This document shows positions 31,460 through 42,871 of a DNA stretch of 64,000 nucleotides, one piece after another. The notes beneath the pieces were generated by a model. It ran no database searches. It was not told the DNA's origin and was given only the letters and a program-made list of their open reading frames with translations. Within the stretch, counting starts at the first letter, position 1, and each line of letters starts with the position of its first letter. Source of the DNA: an uncultured Vampirovibrionales bacterium. Its GTDB lineage: Bacteria > Cyanobacteriota > Vampirovibrionia > Vampirovibrionales > Vampirovibrionaceae. The DNA lies in NCBI GenBank assembly GCA_964387265.1, contig CAYLWC010000012.1, forward strand, positions 2,737-66,736. The letters run 5' to 3'. The position numbers and the translations under genes were made by a program.

Positions 31460-32866
31460 ATGCAAGCTTTGACACGGGCATGGAATGCCATTTATAGCGA
31501 TCAACCCTACAGCGCAAGCAGAAACTTTTTGATCACCGCCATTTTCTGGCTCGTTTTTGGAACGACGATCGGCCTGGTAGCCGCCGCTCTGATGGCTTGG
31601 CCGGATCTGATTCACAACATTCCCCAGCTTTCATTTGGTCGCATCCGTCCCGTGCACATTAATGCGGTCTTGGTGGGCTGGCTGTCCATGGGGTATGTCG
31701 CTTGCATGTTCTATGTCGTACCGGTTCTGGTGGGGCGCAAAAGCCTGTGGAGTGAGAAACTGGGCAACCTGACCATGATTGCCTGGAACCTGGTGATGAT
31801 TATCGGCTTGACCAGTATTATGAATGGATACACCGAAGCTCGTGAGTACGCTGAATTAAACGGTCCGCTAGACTGGATGGTACTAGCCGCCTTACTCATG
31901 ACGGGGCTTAATGTCTATATGACTGCTTTAACCGGCCCGGAGAAAAAGTGGTACGTCAGCATCTGGTACATTTTGGGCGCGTTGTTCTGGTTCCCCATTG
32001 TCTATATGATTGGGAACCGGGCTTTTATTGCGTTTGATGGCCTGAATGACGCCATTGCCGGGTGGTTCTACGGACATAATATTTTAGGGATGTGGTTTAC
32101 CGTCGGTGGGGTCGGAATTCTCTATTACTTGCTTCCCAAGTTTTCCGGCAACCCGCTTTACAGCCATACTTTATCCATGATTGGCTTCTGGACCATTGCC
32201 ATGTTCTACGCCCCCACCGGAACCCACCACATTCTCCAGTCCCCGGTGCCAGAGTGGCTGAAGGCCATTGCTGTTATCTCCAGCGTTTTCCTGCTGGTGC
32301 CGGTCCTGACGGTTCTGGTGAACTTCTTTATGACCATGAAGGGTAAATGGCACCTCATGGCCGATCACTTGGCCCTGCGTTTTGCGGCTGCTTCTGGGTT
32401 GGCCTACTTGCTCACTTGTATGCAAGGGCCGTTTCAAGCCACCCGAGGGATTAACTGGTATCTGCACTTCAGCAACTGGGTGGTAGGCCACGCGCACTTG
32501 GCACTGCTAGCCACCTTTACCTTTATCGTGTTTTCCGCCAGTTACTATATCATCCCCAAAATTACGGGGCGAAAAATTTACAGCCGTCCGCTCACCATTT
32601 GGCACTTCTGGCTCAGCTTTATTGGCTGGATCTTGATGATGATTTCACTGACCATTGCCGGCTTGATTCAAGCGGCTGGCTGGCATTTCGCCTTGCCCGT
32701 GGATCAGTGGGCCATTGAGATGGAGCCCTACATGGTTGTCCGCTTCATTTCCGGCATCATGATTGTGGCAGGCCAAATACTGTATATGTTAAACATCTAC
32801 AAAACGGTTTTCTCCAAGGAGTATGAGCCCACACCGGCATCTCCCACGGGAATCGCCTACGTATAA
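31460..32866 (+). CDS. ccoN: Heme-copper oxidase C-family catalytic subunit (cbb3-type CcoN)
   Basis: About 12 TM helices. Conserved His ligands (…PVHINAV…, WFYGHNILG, TGTHHILQ, VVGHAHLAL). Followed directly by a CcoO-like gene. Confidence 0.8.
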   Translation: MQALTRAWNAIYSDQPYSASRNFLITAIFWLVFGTTIGLVAAALMAWPDLIHNIPQLSFGRIRPVHINAVLVGWLSMGYVACMFYVVPVLVGRKSLWSEKLGNLTMIAWNLVMIIGLTSIMNGYTEAREYAELNGPLDWMVLAALLMTGLNVYMTALTGPEKKWYVSIWYILGALFWFPIVYMIGNRAFIAFDGLNDAIAGWFYGHNILGMWFTVGGVGILYYLLPKFSGNPLYSHTLSMIGFWTIAMFYAPTGTHHILQSPVPEWLKAIAVISSVFLLVPVLTVLVNFFMTMKGKWHLMADHLALRFAAASGLAYLLTCMQGPFQATRGINWYLHFSNWVVGHAHLALLATFTFIVFSASYYIIPKITGRKIYSRPLTIWHFWLSFIGWILMMISLTIAGLIQAAGWHFALPVDQWAIEMEPYMVVRFISGIMIVAGQILYMLNIYKTVFSKEYEPTPASPTGIAYV

Positions 32867-32898: not shown

Positions 32899-33936
32899 AT
32901 GGAACAGAGACTCAATTATCTAATCGCCGGTTGCTTCGTCGCACTGATCTTTTTGACCATTATTTTTGTCACCGCAATTTTGCCAGCAACCACCTTTCAG
33001 CCAGAGCCCACCGAGGCGGCGTTTAATTACGACCTGCCGGAAAATGCCCTGGTTAAAAAAGGGCGGGATGTCTACCGCCGGGAAGGCTGTTTCTATTGCC
33101 ATACCCAGTTTACCCGATATCAGGACCGGGAAAGTGGCGAAATGGTCCAGGCCGGGGATTACGTGTATGAGACCCCTCACCTGCTGGGAAGCGAGCGGAC
33201 CGGGCCGGATCTTTCCAACATCGGTGGAAAATACCCGGATGAATGGCACTGGGCGCACCATATGAACCCGCGGAAAGTGAAGCCGGGTTCCATTATGCCC
33301 TCTTTCTCCTACCTGTCTGATGAGGACATGACCGCCTTGATTGCCTACCTCCAGACCTTGGGGGCCAAACGGGAAGAAGTGGCTCGCCGCGGCACCCCGT
33401 CTCAAGATCCCAATAGTAAACATAAATGGGAAGATCCCCCAGCCACCTGGCTTGAGGCACCTCAAGAAATGCAGGATGACTGGGTGCGAATTGCCGAAAA
33501 CATTGATGTCAACAACTCAGCAATGGCCAACTCGGGACGCGGCATCTTTATGCAAAACTGTGCCGTGTGTCACGGGGTGACCGGCCGGGGGAATGGTCCT
33601 GTCAGCAGCACCATGCTCAAAAAGCCTGCCAACCTGACTCGACCCTTCTATACCGCTTATAGCGATGCCATGTGGTTCTGGAGAATCAAGGAAGGGGTGG
33701 CTGGTACCCGGATGCCTCGATGGGGACGTTCCCTCAGTGAAGAGGACATGGCGTATCTCGTCGCCTTTGTGAAAACCTTGCCGGTAGACGGCTCGATCCC
33801 GGCAGGGGAAATCGAAGTCACCCACTTTGGTCAGCTGGATGATATGAAAGTGATGAGCGAGAACTACAAAGAAATCGAGGAGCTGGGCGTGCTCTTTAGA
33901 AAAAGTCCCTACCATTACGGAGGTGGCCGCGAATGA
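32899..33936 (+). CDS. ccoO: CcoO-like mono-heme cytochrome c subunit with an additional C-terminal mono-heme cytochrome c domain
   Basis: N-terminal TM helix. CcoO motifs (GCFYCHTQ; RTGPDLSNIGGKYPDEWHWAHHMNP). A second CXXCH (CAVCHGVTGRGNGP…MP) in a CcoP-like C-terminal domain. Confidence 0.75.
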   Translation: MEQRLNYLIAGCFVALIFLTIIFVTAILPATTFQPEPTEAAFNYDLPENALVKKGRDVYRREGCFYCHTQFTRYQDRESGEMVQAGDYVYETPHLLGSERTGPDLSNIGGKYPDEWHWAHHMNPRKVKPGSIMPSFSYLSDEDMTALIAYLQTLGAKREEVARRGTPSQDPNSKHKWEDPPATWLEAPQEMQDDWVRIAENIDVNNSAMANSGRGIFMQNCAVCHGVTGRGNGPVSSTMLKKPANLTRPFYTAYSDAMWFWRIKEGVAGTRMPRWGRSLSEEDMAYLVAFVKTLPVDGSIPAGEIEVTHFGQLDDMKVMSENYKEIEELGVLFRKSPYHYGGGRE

Positions 33937-34120: not shown

Positions 34121-34285
34121 ATGAGCGAACCGAATCAGACACCAGATATCCCAGAACGGGTTGAAATGAAAGATTATGAAGAATTTGAAATCGGGGAACA
34201 CAAAGTACCCTGGTTTTTGTGGGTCTTTTTTACTTTCATTGTTCTTTGGGCGTCTGTGTCCTGGATCAAGTTTTTCGGATATTAA
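34121..34285 (+). CDS. Small membrane peptide resembling the CcoP N-terminal anchor helix, 54 aa
   Basis: Not in the ORF track. …DYEEFEIGEHKVPWFLWVFFTFIVLW… resembles the CcoP N-terminal …EEYDNPLPRWWFLLF… segment. SD GGAAGAGGGAAGCTATG. Confidence 0.4.
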   Translation: MSEPNQTPDIPERVEMKDYEEFEIGEHKVPWFLWVFFTFIVLWASVSWIKFFGY

Positions 34286-34308
34286 GCAAAGAGGTTTGGA
34301 TCTTGCCG

Positions 34309-35358
34309 ATGAAGGGATTGTCACAACCATATAGAATACTGGGCCGCCTGGGGCTACCGTTACTGGCGCTCACCGTGCTGGCCACCGGTTGTATTCAGAA
34401 AGCGGACGTTCAGCAAACGGCCCCCGTTGCAGCTGAGCCAATCATTGACCAGAAGTTGGCCATGGATGATTTCCGCTTCCCCTCCAAGGACCCTTCATTA
34501 AAGCGCGGCAAGGAGCTTTTTGAAAGCAACTGTATGCAGTGCCACGCCAATAGTTACTGGCAGCAGCCCAAAGTTCAGCAAAACTTGGCCTATACCACCC
34601 CCATAGATCTATACCTCTTTTTAACCAAGGGAGAAGCACCAAAAACCCTCTTGGTCAATAACGAGCGACGGGAAGTTCTGCCCAAGGAACACGCCCAAAA
34701 CGGTAAGCTGCTTTCCTTCCGCAATAATATGAGTAGTGATGATCGCTGGGCTGTATTATTTTATGCCCGCTACCTGGCCGGAGCCGGTGATTTCCACTCT
34801 CTTCGCAACCGGGTTCCTGATGCGGACATCGGTGCCATTTTTGGAGGAAACTGCGCGGTTTGTCATGGGACGCGCGGGTTTGGCGATGGACCATTGCACC
34901 TGGGTAAAACCGGAAACCATGAAGTCAAAGATGGGGTGATTAAGCATAATATGCTGCCGCCGCCAGCCAACTTCAACGATTATCAACGGCTGCTCAACCG
35001 AACGGACGCCCAACTCTTCAAGTATATCTGCGAAGGGATTTATCCTTCTGCCATGCCGTCCTGGTACGGGAATGTCAGCCGCGATTATGAGACTGGCAAG
35101 ATCAATTTCGTTTTTGATAACGAAATGATCTGGAACCTGGTCCGCCATGTTCGTGGGTTTACCTATGAAAACGACTTGGACGTTGATCCTGACACGGCAC
35201 CCAAAGGATGGATTGACTTCCAAACCTGTCACTCGGTGCCCACCAACCAACCTTGGACAGAGTTGATGAAAAAACACAGCCCCCCGCGCACCCCGCCGGC
35301 CAAGCCTGAGCCGTCGCGTGAAGGTGGCAACGGTCAGCAAGGAGCACATCGCACATGA
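34309..35358 (+). CDS. ccoP: Di-heme cytochrome c lipoprotein (CcoP soluble-domain-like)
   Basis: Internal ATG. Signal peptide with lipobox LATGC. Two CXXCH motifs (CMQCHAN; CAVCHGTRGFGDGP). Confidence 0.7.
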   Translation: MKGLSQPYRILGRLGLPLLALTVLATGCIQKADVQQTAPVAAEPIIDQKLAMDDFRFPSKDPSLKRGKELFESNCMQCHANSYWQQPKVQQNLAYTTPIDLYLFLTKGEAPKTLLVNNERREVLPKEHAQNGKLLSFRNNMSSDDRWAVLFYARYLAGAGDFHSLRNRVPDADIGAIFGGNCAVCHGTRGFGDGPLHLGKTGNHEVKDGVIKHNMLPPPANFNDYQRLLNRTDAQLFKYICEGIYPSAMPSWYGNVSRDYETGKINFVFDNEMIWNLVRHVRGFTYENDLDVDPDTAPKGWIDFQTCHSVPTNQPWTELMKKHSPPRTPPAKPEPSREGGNGQQGAHRT

Positions 35359-36011
35359 TCAACCGACGGGACTTTTTAAAAATTATTGTCAGCATTCCGA
35401 TTCTTGGTGGGCTGGCCCTGTTTGTCTCGCCTCTTTTTCGATACCTCCGGCCTACCTCTGGCCCATTAACCAGCACCAAAATTGATACCTCTGCCGCTTC
35501 CCCCCTGGAGTGGGAAGGGGATGGTGGACTATTTTCCAAGCCCGACATGCCAGAAGGCGAAAGGGAAGTCAGCTTCGACCTGACCGAATTTCCCGCACCC
35601 TGGTCAGCCCATACCTTTACTTTTGGTCAAAGAAGCCGGGAATATACTTTTAGAAATTTTCAGACCACCCAGATTCCGGGTTATGTCGTACGTTTGCCGG
35701 AAGATAAAGACGGGAAACCGGATTTTATCGTGGTCAGCCGCATTTGCCCGCACATGGGGTGCGTGTTCAATTTCTTACCGGAAGCCCATGAAGCAGCCGC
35801 GTACAACTACCCGCAGGCCAAAAACCCCTTGTTCGCCTGTCCTTGTCACCTCAGCGTGTTTGATCCGCTCCAGGAACAGGATATCGGTACTGCCGTAATA
35901 CGCGGCAAAGTGGTCAGTGGTCCGGCGCCTCGTCCACCTCGGCAGTTTACCTGGGCCATTGAAGGCGCTAGATTAGTCATCAAAGAAGCTGAGACCGGAG
36001 GGATTTCCTAG
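35355..36011 (+). CDS. Rieske [2Fe-2S] iron-sulfur protein with Tat signal
   Basis: Twin-arginine RRDFLK plus TM anchor. Rieske boxes CPHMGC … CPCHLS. 4-nt overlap with the upstream gene. Confidence 0.8.
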   Translation: MINRRDFLKIIVSIPILGGLALFVSPLFRYLRPTSGPLTSTKIDTSAASPLEWEGDGGLFSKPDMPEGEREVSFDLTEFPAPWSAHTFTFGQRSREYTFRNFQTTQIPGYVVRLPEDKDGKPDFIVVSRICPHMGCVFNFLPEAHEAAAYNYPQAKNPLFACPCHLSVFDPLQEQDIGTAVIRGKVVSGPAPRPPRQFTWAIEGARLVIKEAETGGIS

Positions 36012-36013
36012 TT

Positions 36014-37465
36014 ATGGCACGTGCATCGTTTGCAGATCTACCGAGTCAAGCCTGGCAGCACGTCAAAGAGCGCATCAATAAAATTGACGTGTTTGATGAA
36101 ACCAAGGTCGACAAGCAAAAAGACTCACCGTGGTACCAATTGGGCAGCATGTACTACCTGTTTTGGGTCGTGGTCATGGCCACGGGTGGCATCCTGATTG
36201 CTTTGTACCTTCCCACTACGGCGCAAGCCTATGATTCGGTTGGCGGACTCTCTCACAATGCCTTGGGCTCCATCCTCCGCGGTCTCCATAAGTACGGGGG
36301 CGATGCCATGATCATTGCCGCCACCTTGCGGATTTACCGGATGTGGTTCTCAGCCGAATACAAAAATAAGGGTGAGTTAACGTTTATTATCGCCATCCTC
36401 TTGTTGGTGGTCGCCATGTACTCCGGGTTGACTGGGTATCTGTTGATTTGGAACCAACGGGCGTTTTGGGCAACCAAGGTCTTTGCCACCTTCCCCACCT
36501 ATCTGGATATCACACCCACCTTCTGGAACTGGCCGTGGGATTTTGAGAACTACAACCGTACCTGGTTAATCCCCAACATCATTGGGGCTGTTACCAAAGT
36601 GATTGGGAACCTGACGCACCAGGGGATGAGTACTTCGCAAATCCTGATGGGGGGCAGCTCTATTGGGCAAGCCACCATGACCCGGTTCTACTCTCTCCAC
36701 TTTGCCTTTTCGCTCATCATGCTGGTTGTTACTGAAATTTACTTCTACAAAAACCGCATGAAACGGATTAACCTGAACCGAGGCGCTGTCTTGACCCTGT
36801 TGGGCATGCTGCTGTTTACCGCCATTATCTTCCCGGCAGAATCCGGCACCCGCGCCAACCCGGAAGTCACTCCGCTACCGATCCTCTCAGACTGGTACTT
36901 CCTGGCGCTGTATCAGATGCTGAAATATATGGATCCCTACTGGGCCACCATCTGGACTGTGGGGATTCCTTTTGTCACCATTGGTCTTACCTTTGTGGAT
37001 TTTGGAAACGAAACCAGCCCGTGGCGGCGGCCCATCTTTACGATGATTGGAATTTTGGCCATCATTGAGTTTATTGTGTTCTCTCTCCTGATTATTGCCA
37101 ATGTGGCCAATATCGAAACGGATCCGCCTTACTGGTTTGCCCACATGATTCTCTTTATCGCCATCGGGCAATTCTGGCACTGGGGTCTGTATAAACAACG
37201 CTTGCCGATGACGGTCTGGGTGTTGTTTAACATGATTACCAGCACCTGGTATCTGATCTTCTGGCATGTGATGGTGGGAGATTATCTGGCCCGATGGATT
37301 GACGGCCTGATGACAGGTACTACCACCCTTGAGAACCCGGCCAACCTGTACTGGAGCCTCATCTGGTTTGTCTTCTCGTTGGTTCAGATGCTGGCAGCTG
37401 GTTTTCTCTTCTGGCAAGACCGCAAGGCCCAGGAAGAAAAACGGCTTGAAGGAGCTACCGCATGA
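36014..37465 (+). CDS. Cytochrome b (long form with fused subunit-IV-like C-terminal part; Qo-site PEWY-like SDWYFLALY)
   Basis: Helix-B motif RGLHKYGGDAMIIAATLRIYRMWF and helix-D motif RFYSLHFAF…, each retaining only the first His. The positions of the second His are Arg and Tyr/Phe. Confidence 0.75.
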   Translation: MARASFADLPSQAWQHVKERINKIDVFDETKVDKQKDSPWYQLGSMYYLFWVVVMATGGILIALYLPTTAQAYDSVGGLSHNALGSILRGLHKYGGDAMIIAATLRIYRMWFSAEYKNKGELTFIIAILLLVVAMYSGLTGYLLIWNQRAFWATKVFATFPTYLDITPTFWNWPWDFENYNRTWLIPNIIGAVTKVIGNLTHQGMSTSQILMGGSSIGQATMTRFYSLHFAFSLIMLVVTEIYFYKNRMKRINLNRGAVLTLLGMLLFTAIIFPAESGTRANPEVTPLPILSDWYFLALYQMLKYMDPYWATIWTVGIPFVTIGLTFVDFGNETSPWRRPIFTMIGILAIIEFIVFSLLIIANVANIETDPPYWFAHMILFIAIGQFWHWGLYKQRLPMTVWVLFNMITSTWYLIFWHVMVGDYLARWIDGLMTGTTTLENPANLYWSLIWFVFSLVQMLAAGFLFWQDRKAQEEKRLEGATA

Positions 37466-37770
37466 TGACCGCTTCCACCCCGAAAAAACAGCCCCTGCAC
37501 CCCATACTCTGGTGGGTGCTGTTTGGTGTGGCCACGTTTCAATTGTCCCTGTGCCTGCAATCGTCCAGAGCGTTTTTCCTGGATACCAACTGGGGGAATG
37601 GCTTGCATTTGCTGGGGATGATTGCCCTGCTGGGTCTGGTGATGGGTGTTTTGATGTATGACAGTTACGTCAAGGAAAAGCACCAAGGGAAAATCCAGCG
37701 GCCGATTCGCTTGTTTGAGTGGCTCTATCAGCGCCAATATTCCAATAAAGGAGGCATGCACGTACTATGA
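37462..37770 (+). CDS. Small membrane protein (2 TM), operon-internal
   Basis: Start overlaps the upstream stop. Two hydrophobic helices. Confidence 0.45.
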   Translation: MMTASTPKKQPLHPILWWVLFGVATFQLSLCLQSSRAFFLDTNWGNGLHLLGMIALLGLVMGVLMYDSYVKEKHQGKIQRPIRLFEWLYQRQYSNKGGMHVL

Positions 37771-38021
37771 AATTGAAGATGAAGGACATTCTGGCCATTC
37801 TTTTAGCCATTCTTGCCAGTGCCGGCATCTTTGGCATGCTGGTGGGCGAGGGCAGCATCGTACCCGCCTCAGATAATGGCGAAATGCTGGAAGGGCTGAA
37901 AATGTACCTGACCGGCTTTGGCTGGATTTGCTTATTGGTCGGGGCAGCCTATGTCCTGACGGGTTATCGGGATCGGGTGGAGACCGATTTGCTTCACCCC
38001 GATGAAGAAGAACAGTCGTAA
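37767..38021 (+). CDS. Small membrane protein (2 TM), operon-internal
   Basis: Start overlaps the upstream stop. Two hydrophobic helices and an acidic tail. Confidence 0.45.
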   Translation: MKLKMKDILAILLAILASAGIFGMLVGEGSIVPASDNGEMLEGLKMYLTGFGWICLLVGAAYVLTGYRDRVETDLLHPDEEEQS

Positions 38022-38036
38022 GGAAGGAGTCATCAG

Positions 38037-39176
38037 GTGTATACCGAACCCTTGCAACGCGCAACCCTCTGGTTAGAAAAAGGGCTGAATGCGATTTTTT
38101 CCCAAAAATACAACCCCTTTTACTACCACGGGGCCCTGCCCAATTACTTTATCTGGGTCCTGTTTCTCTCCGGGCTGCTCTTATTTGCCTACTACATCCC
38201 GACCCTGGAAAACGCCTATAACTCGGTGAGCTACATCACCCACTCCATCCCATTTGGCAACGCGTTCCGAACCATCCATCGCTATGCTGGTGATGGGATG
38301 ATGATCTTTGTGATGCTGCACCTGGCGCGGGTCTGGTTTACCGATCGTTACCGCGAATACCGGATTGTCCCCTGGATTACCGGGGTGATTCTCTTGATTC
38401 TGACCTTCCTGGTAGGGTTAACCGGATATTTGCTGATCTGGGATCAGGAAGCGGTGACGCTCACCAACTTGACCGTCAACTTCCTCAATCAATTGCCGCT
38501 CATCGGACCGCCCACGGCGGAGTTCTTGATTGCCGGAAAAATCATTACCGATTACTCTTTAACCCGGTTCCTCTTTTTGCATTTGGCCATTCCCCTGGCC
38601 CTGATGTTTTTCCTCTGGATGCATTACATTCGGATTACCCGACCGGTGACCAACCCGCCGTTGGCTCTGGTGGTTCTGTTAACTGGGGGGTTATTTACCA
38701 TTGCCGGGGCGTATCCGGTGGAACTGGGAGAAGCCCCCAGCTTAACCGCAGTCAGCTCTACCGTGGAACTGGATTTACTTTACGCCTGGCCCCAATACTT
38801 GGTACTGCAAGGTGTTTCGCCTAGTCTGGTCTGGCTGCTAGTGCTCTTGGTTCCGGTTGGTTTACTGGTGCTACCCTACCTGCAGAAAAAAGCCCTGCGA
38901 GGCCAGTACGCCAACGTCATCCGAGAAAACTGTACAGGTTGCTCCCTGTGCTATCATGATTGCCCTTATGAAGCCATTACCATGGTGGATCGAGGCAACG
39001 ATGGCACCCGGTTCAAGCGTCTGGCCGTGGTGGATCCAGGTCGGTGTTCCAACTGCGGACTCTGTGTTGGCGCATGTGCCTTTAAGGCCATTGAAATCCC
39101 CCGGTGTGAAACTCCGGATGTTCTATCAGAAATTGAGTTAGCTTTAAGCCAGTCTTCCAATAAGGCTTCAGTGTGA
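38037..39176 (+). CDS. Cytochrome b (b6-like, four-His di-heme) fused to a C-terminal 2x[4Fe-4S] ferredoxin domain
   Basis: GTG start. Helix B IHRYAGDGMMIFVMLHLARVWF (H-x13-H). Helix D LFLHLAIPLALMFFLWMHY (H-x13-H). C-terminus CTGCSLCYHDCP … CSNCGLCVGACA. Confidence 0.7.
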   Translation: MYTEPLQRATLWLEKGLNAIFSQKYNPFYYHGALPNYFIWVLFLSGLLLFAYYIPTLENAYNSVSYITHSIPFGNAFRTIHRYAGDGMMIFVMLHLARVWFTDRYREYRIVPWITGVILLILTFLVGLTGYLLIWDQEAVTLTNLTVNFLNQLPLIGPPTAEFLIAGKIITDYSLTRFLFLHLAIPLALMFFLWMHYIRITRPVTNPPLALVVLLTGGLFTIAGAYPVELGEAPSLTAVSSTVELDLLYAWPQYLVLQGVSPSLVWLLVLLVPVGLLVLPYLQKKALRGQYANVIRENCTGCSLCYHDCPYEAITMVDRGNDGTRFKRLAVVDPGRCSNCGLCVGACAFKAIEIPRCETPDVLSEIELALSQSSNKASV

Positions 39177-39189
39177 GGTTTTTGCAACA

Positions 39190-39597
39190 ATGACCAAAGA
39201 AACAAAAATGATTGGAATTGTCTGTGAACGGAGTACCGATCTCACCGATCGCCTGGATGAGAACGGCTATCTGAAAGACAACCCCGATGTCAAAGTCATC
39301 ACCGTGCCGTGTAGTGGGATGATCCAGCCGATTATGCTGGAAACCGCCCTGAAAAAAGGCGCTGATGGGGTTTTCACCTGTGGCTGCCGGATCGGAGATT
39401 GCCACTACCGGGAAGGGAATAAATTCCTTCGCGAGCGCCTCCTAGGCAAGCGGATGCCCAAGCTGAAGCCCAATGTGGATAAAAGTCGCATTCAAGCCTA
39501 CTGGCTCTCGGCGCTAGAATACGATAAATTTAAAGACATGGTGAATGAATTCCATGAAACCTGTCAAAAGAAAGAAACAACGGCTGAAAAGTCATAG
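39190..39597 (+). CDS. MvhD/FlpD-family protein (methyl-viologen-reducing hydrogenase delta-subunit-like [2Fe-2S] domain)
   Basis: Motif …VPCSGMIQPIMLETALKKGADGVFTCGCRIGDCHYREGN… matches the FlpD/MvhD Cys pattern. 135 aa. Lies 14 nt after the cyt b-ferredoxin gene. Confidence 0.55.
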   Translation: MTKETKMIGIVCERSTDLTDRLDENGYLKDNPDVKVITVPCSGMIQPIMLETALKKGADGVFTCGCRIGDCHYREGNKFLRERLLGKRMPKLKPNVDKSRIQAYWLSALEYDKFKDMVNEFHETCQKKETTAEKS

Positions 39598-39742
39598 AGG
39601 AGAAGGTTGTTCTCATGGATAAGCGGGAAGATATTTCACTGTTTTTGAAGAATGTTTGGTTCTTTCTGTTTTATTTTGCCCTGTTACTGATGATTGCCAG
39701 CTTTGGCTTGATTGCAGAAACTTAAAAAGAGAGAGGAAAACC

Positions 39743-40150
39743 ATGGTCCATCACCCAGAACGCTCTGAACAAGAGTCCAAGCCTGGATATCGCATCCAGT
39801 GGTTCTTTCATGAATTCTGGCCAATCCTACTCTTTGGCTCCTTTTTTGTAATTATGTGTGCATTGCCCCTGATTTTATCGAGTCAATTTGCGGCCATGCG
39901 GGATTTTTCCACCTCGGATATCGTCTGGGGTCCTTATGGCTTATTGATTATCGGGGCCTTTTTGGTGGCCATCCTGCTGACGTTTTTTGCGCCCCGGTTG
40001 CTGGCTTGGTATCTCTTCCTCCTGGGTGTGTTGGCCTTGGTGTTGGCCGAAGGCACGGCGGCCTTCCGCGTGGGCGCCTCGGTTGCTATTGTATTTCTGG
40101 GCTTTGTCCTCTTTGGCATCTTTGTTCTCCCGCAAAAGCGTAACAAATAG
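39743..40150 (+). CDS. Hypothetical integral membrane protein (about 4 TM)
   Basis: Internal ATG after a GAGAGG SD. Hydrophobic. Preceded by a 36-aa hydrophobic mini-ORF (39614..39723). Confidence 0.4.
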   Translation: MVHHPERSEQESKPGYRIQWFFHEFWPILLFGSFFVIMCALPLILSSQFAAMRDFSTSDIVWGPYGLLIIGAFLVAILLTFFAPRLLAWYLFLLGVLALVLAEGTAAFRVGASVAIVFLGFVLFGIFVLPQKRNK

Positions 40151-40754: not shown

Positions 40755-41729
40755 TTAGCGGGCGGCTTTTTCCGGGGGGGCATTCTCCAAAACGGCCAGG
40801 GCATCTGGCCCCACCAGCATGGCTAGCGCATTTCTGGCTTTAAGATAAGCTTGCCGGGTTTGGAGCTCTTCTTGATAAGCCGCATCTTGCAGCGACGTGA
40901 CAATGGGCTGAAACACCGGCTCAATAGGACTTTCCTCAGCCCGGATCTGCAGGACCCGATGGGCTTCTTGGGCCAAATTCCACCGCTCGCGAGCATGGCG
41001 AAAATCATAGTAGCGTTCAATAACCTGCGTTTGCAGGGCTTCCACCTCTTTGGCCAAAATGACCATATCGGCATCGGTTACCCGCATCTTGGACATATCG
41101 GTCCCGTCGGCAAAAAGCATATCTTCTAGCATGTTGCTGCCAATCAGCCCGGCAGGGGTACCGGTCCACATGGAGCTTGCGACACCACCCAGGCGGGTCA
41201 CATTCTGCAAGAGGCGTTTTGCCAGACCATCGTTTTCAACCGGCTCCCCAGTCGCATCCCGACGTGACAGCTTTTCAATGGCATACCGAATCGCTCCGCT
41301 CCGCTCAACCGCCGCTTGCCACAACATCCCAATGTCCTTGGCCGCCAGCTCTTCATCATCCCGAAGCTCATGGTAAATGGCTCGAGCTTCCAGGTTCAGG
41401 GCCTCGCTCATTTCAACCAGCGTCTTTCGGGTCTCCGGGTCCAAGCCCTCCGGCAGAGCCAGCGCTGGCGGATTCTTTTCCGCCGGGGTCGATGTTTTCT
41501 TCAAACGCTCCGATGCCTTTGTCTTTTGGCTTGTGGTTTTCTTGGCGTCTGAGGCCTTTTTCTGCACGGCCTCTTTTTTGACGTCTTTCTTTGCCGCCCG
41601 CTGCGTATCCAGCAGCATGGGCGGGTTTTTTTCAGCCGCCGCCACCGGAATCGTCACGGACAGGGCCAGCAGTAACCCCAATACAGTGATAGTGCCTGTT
41701 TTCATTCTCTGTTGCATGTGCCCACTCAC
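40755..41729 (-). CDS. Secreted hypothetical protein (helical; TolC/outer-membrane-efflux-protein-like repeat?)
   Basis: Signal peptide. Shares the motif MLWQAAVERSGAIRYAIEKLS and a similar C-terminus with the upstream paralog. Confidence 0.4.
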   Translation of the reverse strand: MSGHMQQRMKTGTITVLGLLLALSVTIPVAAAEKNPPMLLDTQRAAKKDVKKEAVQKKASDAKKTTSQKTKASERLKKTSTPAEKNPPALALPEGLDPETRKTLVEMSEALNLEARAIYHELRDDEELAAKDIGMLWQAAVERSGAIRYAIEKLSRRDATGEPVENDGLAKRLLQNVTRLGGVASSMWTGTPAGLIGSNMLEDMLFADGTDMSKMRVTDADMVILAKEVEALQTQVIERYYDFRHARERWNLAQEAHRVLQIRAEESPIEPVFQPIVTSLQDAAYQEELQTRQAYLKARNALAMLVGPDALAVLENAPPEKAAR

Positions 41730-42871
41730 TCCTTGACCTGATCATCCGCCACGGGCAGATCCGGGGGCGGTGGCCCCACCAGACCGGACGGGACAGTCGC
41801 CATCGTCGCATCCGTTTGGCTCTTTAAGGTAGGGGTTAATTCCAGCTGCTCGGGCAGCTCCTGGGGCAGTTGGGGGGCCTGCCCAGCCGCAAATTGGGCG
41901 GATTCTTCCGGGTTAACCAACAGAGCCAGTTGCAGATCCGAAACCGGCTCGGGTCCGGCCAAACGTTCCAGCTGAATCCGGTATATTTTAGCCTGTTGCC
42001 TTAGCTTCAACTCATTCAGCGAGGCTTGGTAATAGGTCCGGGCGGCGGCCGTGATGGCCAATGCGTTTCTAGACTGCAGCGCCTCCGTATACAGGGCGTT
42101 GTTTTTCAACACCAGCTGGTGGGCTTCTGTCAGTTGCAACAAGGTATTTTTATAGCCATGATAATTTTCAACCAGCCGCACCTTTAGTTCATCAATGAGA
42201 CCTGCCAACTGAATCTGCTCGGTGGGCGTCAGAATATCCCCCGCCGGTTGCGGGTTGCCATTGACCATGTTTTGAGCCGCGTTCCCCAAGGCCATCGCCG
42301 TCATGTTCTGATAATAGCTGCTTCCACCTGCAACACCGGGCATCATGGTGGCCCCCATCGTGGCGCCTTGAATCATCAGGCTCAGGGTCTTTTTCATAAA
42401 CTGGCTGGATTTTTTAGGCTGCAGATCCACCGGGGTGCTGAGCTTTTCCAGAGAAAAGCGAATCACCGGATTACGTTCCACGGTGGCTTCCCACAGCTGC
42501 CGTAAATCCGCCTCATCCAGTTTTTGCTGCATGGTTTTTAATTCCTGCAGAGGCTCGGTGGTATACTGTACCCCCAACTCTGTCTCCAATTTTTGAATTT
42601 TCGGGGTGACCTTGAAGGCCGGGGTGGTCACTGCAGTCAAAGCCACCGGCTCCACCGCGTTATCCTCAGATGGCTGAAAGTGTTCCGGGGTCAGGGGGCC
42701 ATTGATCACAGCCAGAGGCGGTAAAAAGTTCCGCTGGGGTAATTTCAATTCTTCTTGCGTTGCTTCTTTTTTCTTCTCTTTCCCCCAAGCAAACACAGCC
42801 GTTGGCGCCAAGGCCAGCATGGGAGCTAAAAGCAGGATAATCCCAACTTTCGCACTATGTATCAATCGCAT
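41726..42871 (-). CDS. Secreted hypothetical protein, paralog of the downstream gene
   Basis: Signal peptide. Motif LRQLWEATVERNPVIRFSLEKLS. 4-nt overlap with the next gene. Confidence 0.4.
   Translation of the reverse strand: MRLIHSAKVGIILLLAPMLALAPTAVFAWGKEKKKEATQEELKLPQRNFLPPLAVINGPLTPEHFQPSEDNAVEPVALTAVTTPAFKVTPKIQKLETELGVQYTTEPLQELKTMQQKLDEADLRQLWEATVERNPVIRFSLEKLSTPVDLQPKKSSQFMKKTLSLMIQGATMGATMMPGVAGGSSYYQNMTAMALGNAAQNMVNGNPQPAGDILTPTEQIQLAGLIDELKVRLVENYHGYKNTLLQLTEAHQLVLKNNALYTEALQSRNALAITAAARTYYQASLNELKLRQQAKIYRIQLERLAGPEPVSDLQLALLVNPEESAQFAAGQAPQLPQELPEQLELTPTLKSQTDATMATVPSGLVGPPPPDLPVADDQVKE

Follow-up and report, generated by a model that had tools for sequence, protein, structure and literature searches.

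A Qo-type cytochrome b without haem bH ligands and its co-encoded iron-sulfur-fused paralogue in Vampirovibrionales and other bacteria

In the genome of an uncultured Vampirovibrionales bacterium (assembly GCA_964387265.1, contig CAYLWC010000012.1), a stretch of 64,000 nucleotides (positions 2,737 to 66,736 of the forward strand, here called the window) contains a gene cluster for a Rieske/cytochrome b system with two different cytochromes b: a long one (36014-37465) and a short one that ends in a ferredoxin domain. The long cytochrome b has the motif of a quinol-oxidation (Qo) site and neither of the second histidines that would hold the high-potential haem bH. The question raised by this locus is where the low-potential electron released at such a site would go. 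The answer favoured here, with a probability of about 0.5, is that the two paralogues pair, that the electron would leave the long cytochrome b by passing from its low-potential haem bL to the bL of the short one, and that it would then cross the membrane to a chain of iron-sulfur (Fe-S) clusters.

In bc1 and b6f complexes, the first histidines of helices B and D of cytochrome b ligate haem bL and the second ones ligate haem bH. The four haem-ligand residues have been named in a survey of the family (PMC4122944). Their positions were located by three independent alignments: a phmmer search with solved-structure cytochrome b6 chains as targets, a BLASTP comparison of the two paralogues, and MAFFT alignments of the families. 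The long open reading frame (ORF) at 36014-37465 is intact, and a database protein of equal length (P0001, 483 residues) matches its product at 100% identity; the product has a b6-like N-terminal bundle, a subunit-IV-like part and extra C-terminal helices. The bL histidines are present (H92, 36287-36289; H229, 36698-36700), the bH positions are occupied by arginine in helix B (R106, 36329-36331) and tyrosine in helix D (Y243, 36740-36742), and the translation has no other histidine in helices A to D. The phmmer alignment with cytochrome b6 (E 4e-23) sets '...lrglHkygg...atlRiyrmwf' over '...irsiHrws...milHvfrvyl' in helix B and '...trfyslHfafslimlvvteiyfy' over '...tryysaHtfvlpwliavfmlfHfl' in helix D; BLASTP of the two paralogues (28% identity, E 7e-26) aligns R106 with H95 and Y243 with H196. 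The original prediction had assigned these helices with arginine at the second-histidine position of helix B and no second histidine in helix D. All three alignments agree with it, so that mis-assignment of the helices is rejected, and the alignment with cytochrome b/b6 families that had been set as a check confirmed the residues at the four ligand positions of both proteins. A frameshifted pseudogene is likewise rejected, since the ORF is intact, matches a database protein, is conserved and is under strong purifying selection. Two further candidates fail on the residues present: an alternative ligand histidine in helices A to D, of which the window protein has none, and a b6f-type haem cn, since the position of Cys35 holds glutamine in the long and tyrosine in the short cytochrome b.

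Loss of the bH ligands is a trait of the whole clade. The long cytochrome b was compared with its 120 best homologues in the database (46-100% identity): the helix-B bH position is arginine in 99 and lysine in 21, the helix-D position is tyrosine in 119 and tryptophan in one, and the bL histidines are kept in all save one gapped sequence. With one genome scanned per species, a relative turned up in 298 genomes, and in the best 80 of these loci the helix-B position is arginine or lysine, the helix-D position is tyrosine, arginine or phenylalanine, and the bL histidines are invariant. Histidine at both bH positions occurs in none of the 120 homologues and none of the 80 species loci, a pattern well outside what chance would give. 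Among 1.8 billion cluster representatives, of which the 150 best matches were inspected, 27 matched at E <1e-30 and were mostly members or fragments of this clade; the matches beyond E 1e-30 were ordinary cytochromes b, nearly all with four histidines. From its ligand residues, the long cytochrome b is predicted to bind a single haem. Glu241 (36734-36736), a membrane-embedded residue two positions ahead of the lost helix-D histidine, is invariant in the 120 homologues, and one guess is that it might form a buried salt bridge with R/K106 in place of the haem. Arg109 (36338-36340), the canonical partner of a bH propionate, and Gly44 of helix A stay invariant in the alignments of the long family, and the helix-C glycine that packs on bH on the negative side (n-side) of the membrane is relaxed to alanine, glycine or serine.

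Some members of the clade have histidine in helix D together with arginine in helix B (P0249, P0250, P0253, P0254 and P0256; loci L085:9001-10755 and L088:9001-10251), and one of them sits in a metagenome-assembled genome (MAG) with a gene for the sporulation protein SpoIIR. These proteins may be evolutionary intermediates of bH loss, or may hold a five-coordinate haem. Separately, helix D of the Acidobacteria proteins has a lineage-specific histidine three residues beyond the bH position.

The Qo side of the long cytochrome b is strictly kept. The PEWY-like motif that had been read in the sequence is SDWY, in which serine for proline is an unusual variant, and the surrounding LSDWYFL is found in 80 of 80 loci. 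The cd loop, SGLTGYLLIWNQRAFWATKVFATFPTY, shows almost no variation across the loci; the cd and ef loops, which form the Qo site, are the most conserved regions of the long cytochrome b across phyla, whereas the same loops are poorly conserved in the short one. The Rieske gene (35355-36011) adjoins that of the long cytochrome b, as expected for Rieske/cytochrome b complexes. An AlphaFold2 model of the long cytochrome b based on a 90-sequence alignment has a mean predicted local distance difference test (pLDDT) score of 82 and a predicted template modelling (pTM) score of 0.82 (a single-sequence model, with pLDDT 46, was of no use), and the top Foldseek matches of this model in the PDB are all bc1 cytochromes b, the best being 6kls_B. 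A Qi (quinone-reduction) site in the same protein would be without electron supply because the bH ligands are absent. The n-side loops are nonetheless invariant, although bH and Qi are gone, which suggests that a partner docks there; they may be the docking surface for the Fe-S module.

The proposed partner in the complex is the short cytochrome b. Its ORF, too, is intact, and its 379-residue product has a 100% identical counterpart of equal length in the database (P0121). It has six helices (A to F) with the ligands H81, H95, H182 and H196 all present and in register with those of cytochrome b6 in the phmmer alignment, and eight cysteines in two CxxCxxCxxxC motifs (Cys 299-309 and 337-347; 38931-39077) within the part covered by Fer4 families (residues 290-355); the original prediction had thus been right to give it four histidines and a ferredoxin domain. 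In 74 loci the four histidines are invariant and the eight Fe-S cysteines are kept in 73. The ferredoxin domain is placed in the cytoplasm by homology to b6 together with the count of six helices. A search with PF00032 gave no match to the short cytochrome b. Its ef loop reads ELDLLY, with LDLL at the motif and only Asp246 conserved (73/74), and its cd loop is weakly conserved; in many homologues the ef-loop aspartate stands within an xDWF-like motif. Helices E and F and this degenerate ef loop with a conserved aspartate place it near the 'PDWF-FeS' cytochromes b. On the n-side, H31 and WFTDRY are invariant. His31 (38127-38129) stands where helix A begins on the n-side, beside the residue aligned to the haem-cn Cys35 of b6, and might ligate a cofactor or contact a quinone; AlphaFold3 models of the Rieske/cytochrome b complexes of anaerobic ammonium-oxidizing (anammox) bacteria put an extra haem on a histidine in a comparable region (PMC12954380).

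The product of the next gene, an MvhD-like protein with no signal peptide, matches MvhD of the Hdr/Mvh structure (PDB 5odc_D) at E 1.1e-20. Its C41, C66 and C71 correspond to cysteines of 5odc_D and the N-terminal CCxxC is shrunk to a single Cys12; across 72 loci, Cys12, Cys41 and Cys71 are conserved, as is the C64-G-C66 segment.

The two cytochromes b travel together. When the window proteins were searched against every ORF of the 80 loci, the order CcoN, CcoO-cytochrome c, dihaem cytochrome c, Rieske protein, long cytochrome b, two small membrane proteins, short cytochrome b with ferredoxin domain, and MvhD recurred in every locus long enough, bar two of the 80 (L018 and L020, discussed below). 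Those database homologues that carry names come from Vampirovibrio, Vampirovibrionales and Melainabacteria. The 80 loci span Vampirovibrionales, Obscuribacterales, Caenarcaniphilales, and Holophagaceae and Solibacteraceae (Acidobacteriota), and take in MAGs labelled Gammaproteobacteria, Proteobacteria and Armatimonadetes; the order recurs in Vampirovibrionia and Acidobacteriota and also in MAGs of Pseudomonadota, Armatimonadota and Bacillota. Four more contigs, reached through the distant cluster representatives, repeat it, one of them from a Firmicute-like MAG that encodes SpoIIR. In each locus that was looked at closely, homologues or positional equivalents of the small proteins sit between the two cytochrome b genes, with a single small gene in L090, one of the four distant contigs. 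From the Rieske gene through mvhD of the window, neighbouring genes overlap by 4 nucleotides or are separated by gaps of at most 15 nucleotides, which suggests coupled expression.

A second arrangement occurs in two loci (L082:946-8471 and L083:4053-11578) whose GroEL shares 97% identity with the GroEL of a Caldisericia MAG. The order there is Rieske protein, short cytochrome b with ferredoxin domain, MvhD, a Fer4 protein, a sulfhydrogenase-beta (HydB/ShyB)-like protein (E 1.6e-34 to PDB 9nez_B), an FAD/NAD(P)-binding HydG/AsrB-like protein, long cytochrome b and two small proteins, and no oxidase or cytochrome c is present in the cluster. The long cytochrome b of these loci again has arginine in helix B and tyrosine in helix D, with a PDWY motif. 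In L086 the same flavoprotein is encoded immediately upstream of the long cytochrome b. The Caldisericia loci show the Fe-S chain connected to cytoplasmic pyridine-nucleotide chemistry, and the presence of the pair in this second context marks the two paralogues as an old, portable unit. As a separate feature, the Caldisericia long cytochrome b (686 residues) has an insertion of about 300 residues, rich in charged residues, in the A-B loop on the positive side (p-side).

In the favoured pathway, the cytochrome b core would consist of two different paralogues rather than two identical subunits. Menaquinol would be oxidized at the Qo site of the long cytochrome b, and one electron would reach the oxidase, and O2, by way of the Rieske protein and the c haems. 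The second would reduce bL of the long cytochrome b; without bH, and hence without a Qi site, its only exit would be sideways to bL of the short cytochrome b, from which it would proceed to bH of the same subunit, the two [4Fe-4S] clusters, the MvhD cluster and a cytoplasmic acceptor. The acceptor side would be the NAD(P)-binding flavoprotein module in the Caldisericia form; in the oxidase-linked form the acceptor would be encoded outside the cluster. Most likely the complex forms one supercomplex with the dihaem cytochrome c and the cbb3 oxidase of the same cluster. The two bL haems of bc1 dimers are near enough for electron transfer, and nitrate reductase (NarI/NarH) proves that a dihaem cytochrome b joined to Fe-S subunits in the cytoplasm can act as a transmembrane wire. 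Pairing is favoured because the two cytochrome b genes, the small proteins and MvhD stay syntenic across phyla with overlaps or gaps of at most 15 nucleotides, and the route is favoured because ligand pattern, conservation and synteny agree; from these the heterodimer, the path, the direction of flow and the acceptor of the complex are inferred. The fuller version of this reading, in which the heterodimer would be obligatory, bL-to-bL transfer the sole exit, and oxidase-pulled bifurcation without a Q cycle would reduce a ferredoxin-like carrier or NAD(P)+ in aerobic heterotrophs, is tentative and somewhat unlikely as a whole.

Several observations weigh against the pairing and the outward route. 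Transfer of electrons from menaquinol to a low-potential acceptor against the membrane potential is, by our own estimate, energetically tight, and would require a strongly oxidized high-potential branch together with a reduced quinone pool; the same energetic issue has been discussed for the anammox complexes (PMC12954380). No conserved acceptor gene lies downstream of mvhD in the six lineages compared, and a phmmer search of the L082 proteins against all window ORFs found no HydB/HydG-like genes in the 64-kb window. Two Vampirovibrionales MAGs (L018:9400-10400 and L020:9430-10000) retain the oxidase, the Rieske protein, the single-haem cytochrome b and both small proteins, followed by unrelated genes on the opposite strand, with no short cytochrome b or MvhD downstream; in these genomes the module has been either relocated or lost. 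On sequence alone, a Qi site is possible in the short cytochrome b, and an unusual second haem is possible on the long one because of the helix-D-histidine members and the invariant R109 and G44. Genes downstream of mvhD in two individual loci were considered as conserved acceptors and rejected as lineage-specific. In L089 (7131-9833), genes for a 2-oxoacid (pyruvate):ferredoxin oxidoreductase lie on the same strand, about 200 bp past a convergent fixS-like gene that itself comes after small ORFs downstream of mvhD, and may be a hint of a ferredoxin link or a coincidence; in a Cyanobacteriota MAG (L044:11797-14266), two ORFs right after mvhD are, by eye, hemE-like and hemN-like.

The alternative that best survives is an asymmetric Q cycle, in which the pair is real, with Qo on the long and Qi on the short cytochrome b, and the ferredoxin domain and MvhD feed electrons inward, so that ferredoxin (NAD(P)H in the Caldisericia form) supplies bH and Qi by a hard-wired ferredoxin-to-quinone route such as has been discussed for b6f. 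This is unlikely. In its favour, helix E is retained in the short cytochrome b, as are strongly conserved residues on the n-side, including the invariant His31; transfer from NAD(P)H or ferredoxin to menaquinone would be downhill, unlike the outward route; the HydB/HydG-like module of L082 fits an NAD(P)H dehydrogenase equally well; and ferredoxin-linked respiration is plausible in Melainabacteria, where complex I has been reported without its NADH module (PMC6349859). What it leaves unexplained is the loss of bH from the long cytochrome b in every lineage. Moreover, the Qi residues of bc1 and b6f (His201/Asp228 and the haem-cn Cys) are not recognizable in the short cytochrome b, and such an input has been judged energy-wasting compared with a proton-pumping complex I, as argued for anammox bacteria (PMC12954380).

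A less probable alternative, to which only a small chance is given, is that two separate modules share an operon. A homodimer of the long cytochrome b with the Rieske protein would then be a non-electrogenic quinol:cytochrome c oxidoreductase in which the bL electron is handed back, at the Qo site of the partner, to quinone or semiquinone, and the short cytochrome b with its ferredoxin domain and MvhD would be an independent quinol link like NarI or HdrE. L018 and L020, which have the long cytochrome b with no short one or MvhD nearby, speak for it, the conserved ef-loop aspartate of the short cytochrome b might belong to a separate quinol site in that subunit, and cytochromes b of the short type can stand alone, given that FeS/MvhD-fused forms occur in clusters without a Rieske protein (PMC4122944). 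It is opposed by the near-universal co-occurrence of the two modules in fixed order and with translational coupling in at least five phyla and in two cluster contexts (oxidase and NAD(P) module), and by the n-side loops of the long cytochrome b, which stay invariant despite the loss of bH and Qi. The Qo-to-Qo short circuit that it invokes is also what bc complexes avoid by design. Finally, a second n-side haem on the long cytochrome b with non-histidine or mixed ligands (Tyr243 or a helix-D histidine, with Arg/Lys106 nearby), giving that subunit a bL-to-bH chain of its own, is very improbable: the five helix-D-histidine proteins and the invariant Arg109 and Gly44 speak for it, and tyrosine-ligated haems are known in other proteins, but the helix-D residue varies (Y, R, F, H or W) and helix B always has R/K, so that there is no steady ligand pair, helices A to D hold no further histidine, the n-side glycine of helix C is relaxed, and Glu241 with R/K106 resembles a salt bridge that replaces a haem.

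The pairing of paralogues, if correct, would set this system apart from those already described. The cytochromes b of canonical bc1 and b6f complexes (6kls_B, 1pp9_C, 2zt9_A) have the same fold and, as here, an adjacent Rieske gene; their PEWY-type motif and cd loop are matched by the long cytochrome b, their bL ligands by both paralogues, and all four of their histidines by the short one. Those complexes, however, are homodimers of one cytochrome b with four invariant histidines and a Qi site, whereas here there are two paralogues of 28% identity, one without both bH ligands and the other ending in Fe-S clusters. In engineered bc1 complexes of Rhodobacter capsulatus, two cytochromes b are reportedly fused with haems or sites disabled in one half, and electrons cross between the bL haems; those fusions are artificial, whereas the asymmetry here would be natural and obligatory. 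The transmembrane wire proposed for the short cytochrome b, in which two b haems exchange electrons with cytoplasmic Fe-S clusters, resembles NarI/NarH, HdrE/HdrD and QmoC, and QmoB and HdrA2 also carry MvhD-type connector domains (NF040770 matches), but the NarI, HdrE and QmoC subunits have unrelated folds, no Rieske partner and no Qo-type bifurcation. A dihaem cytochrome c and an oxidase are joined to a Rieske/cytochrome b complex in the bc-oxidase supercomplexes of Pseudomonas (bc1-cbb3, 8smr) and actinobacteria (III2IV2 with dihaem QcrC), and chains of 8smr are among the sequence and fold matches; those supercomplexes have canonical homodimeric cytochrome b, and the Pseudomonas genes are not in one operon with the oxidase.

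The short paralogue stands near the cytochromes b of the 'PDWF-FeS clade' of Magnetospirillum magneticum AMB-1 as well as Turneriella parva, described by Kao and Hunte in 2014 as FeS/MvhD-fused cytochromes b in clusters without a Rieske protein (PMC4122944). They share its 4Fe-4S domain and MvhD module, and homologues of the short cytochrome b share their xDWF-like ef-loop motif with a conserved aspartate, the window protein itself having LDLL; in the clade MvhD is fused and there is no Rieske protein, whereas here MvhD is a separate next gene and a Rieske protein and a bH-less partner are present. The long paralogue would have been hidden from that survey, which dropped every sequence with even one of the four histidines missing (PMC4122944). 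The same work noted that the Pyrobaculum cytochrome b lacks the second bH histidine (PMC4122944), a natural predicted loss of bH like that of the long cytochrome b, but specific to an archaeal lineage, affecting one ligand and with no FeS-fused paralogue reported. The closest proposed functional analogue is the anammox Rieske/cytochrome b complexes (Kuenenia kuste4569-4574 and kustd1480-1485), from which the low-potential Qo electron has been proposed to leave through n-side haems to cytoplasmic Fe-S clusters and flavin rather than to quinone (PMC12954380). Their NAD(P) module has an analogue in the Caldisericia locus L082, whereas the cluster of the window has none and is tied to a cbb3 oxidase; they have been modelled as homodimers with a complete b6/subunit-IV, haem cn, a multihaem cytochrome c and a different reductase, and with no bH-less paralogue (PMC12954380). 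Genome papers on Vampirovibrio and Obscuribacter described the cluster as Complex III or a Complex III/IV fusion with petB and petC (PMC4451040, PMC4040986, PMC6349859). A full-text literature search found neither the bH-less Qo-type cytochrome b nor its pairing with a complete, Fe-S-fused one described, with prior mention in subscription papers possible.

The genes of the cluster form a tight series on the + strand of the window, from 31460 to about 40150, between a CcoN-like oxidase gene and a membrane protein ORF (Table 1); families were assigned by profile searches of the window ORFs with Pfam and NCBIfam.

Table 1. Genes and motif of the cluster in the window, with the principal matches of their products
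Feature	Position	Strand	Matches and motifs
CcoN-like cbb3-type (C-family) haem-copper oxidase subunit I	31460-32866	+	PF00115 282.8 bits
CcoO fused to second c-type cytochrome domain	32899-33936	+	PF02433 FixO 124.1 bits; PF00034/PF13442
Dihaem c-type cytochrome	34219-35358	+	two PF00034/PF13442 stretches; CMQCH and CAVCH motifs
Rieske [2Fe-2S] protein, twin-arginine signal MINRRDFLK	35355-36011	+	PF00355 20.4 bits; TIGR01416 40 bits
Long cytochrome b, 483 residues	36014-37465	+	PF00033 73.7 bits; PF13631 58.7 bits; PF00032 31.9 bits
Qo (PEWY-type) motif S292-D-W-Y295 of long cytochrome b	36887-36898	+	
Small membrane protein 1, 102 residues	37462-37770	+	start overlaps stop of long cytochrome b
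Small membrane protein 2, 84 residues	37767-38021	+	start overlaps stop of small membrane protein 1
Short cytochrome b with C-terminal 2x[4Fe-4S] ferredoxin domain, 379 residues	38037-39176	+	PF00033 104.1 bits; PF12838; PF00037
MvhD/FlpD-like iron-sulfur protein, 135 residues, cytoplasmic	39190-39597	+	PF02662 89.5 bits (cut-off 22.3)
Membrane protein ORF	39656-40150	+	phmmer 'TMx' matches in most Vampirovibrionales loci

The CcoN-like gene opens the conserved cluster wherever loci extend far enough upstream. For the CcoN and CcoO pair, PF00115 and PF02433 exceed their cut-offs and the NCBIfam equivalog scores fall short (275.9 bits, under the cut-off, for TIGR00780 ccoN; 149.7 bits for NF011054 with the CcoO-cytochrome c fusion), for which reason the oxidase is taken as a divergent member of the cbb3 type. 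The position of the dihaem cytochrome c gene is conserved across loci; its true start is probably ATG 34309 rather than GTG 34219, since a lipoprotein-like signal (LATGC) follows that ATG, and its product presumably links the Rieske protein to the oxidase. The boxes CPHMGC and CPCHLSVF of the Rieske protein, and its GKVVSGPAPRP, show no variation in 78 loci, and the replacement of 'SY' by SVF in box II would fit a Rieske centre of low or middle potential. For the long cytochrome b, the scores of PF00033 and PF13631 both exceed their cut-offs. Small membrane proteins 1 and 2 have no Pfam or NCBIfam match. The membrane protein ORF that follows mvhD probably starts at ATG 39743 instead of TTG 39656; it also has no Pfam or NCBIfam match, its phmmer matches among the loci are confined to Vampirovibrionales, and whether it belongs to the system is uncertain. 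A gene for ribosomal protein S16 comes after the cluster, and just past it are two adjoining ORFs on the - strand (324 and 381 residues, 40755-42871) with N-termini that look like signal peptides by eye.

What is new here is a bH-less Qo-type cytochrome b co-encoded with a complete, Fe-S-fused one, a form of Rieske/cytochrome b complex that is widespread and conserved. Cytochrome b is usually taken to have four invariant haem histidines, and yet an entire clade without the bH pair keeps a strict Qo site; relatives occur in 298 species genomes, at least five phyla are represented among the loci studied closely, and the gene is nearly always co-encoded with that of the Fe-S-fused paralogue. If the subunits pair, nature made the asymmetric bc dimer that biophysicists engineered, and the role of bL-to-bL transfer becomes directly testable; the cluster would be a natural test case for electron transfer between monomers and for quinol-driven reduction of a cytoplasmic carrier. 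It would also be a second, aerobic case of the disputed delivery of low-potential electrons to the cytoplasm, which has been argued mainly for anammox bacteria. The host lineage is a non-photosynthetic relative of Cyanobacteria, and the genomes of Vampirovibrio, Obscuribacter and Acidobacteria feed the debate on the origins of aerobic respiration and of the cyanobacterial b6f complex; if the two cytochromes b do pair, the reading of this cluster as 'Complex III' would change for Vampirovibrio, Obscuribacter and many Acidobacteria.

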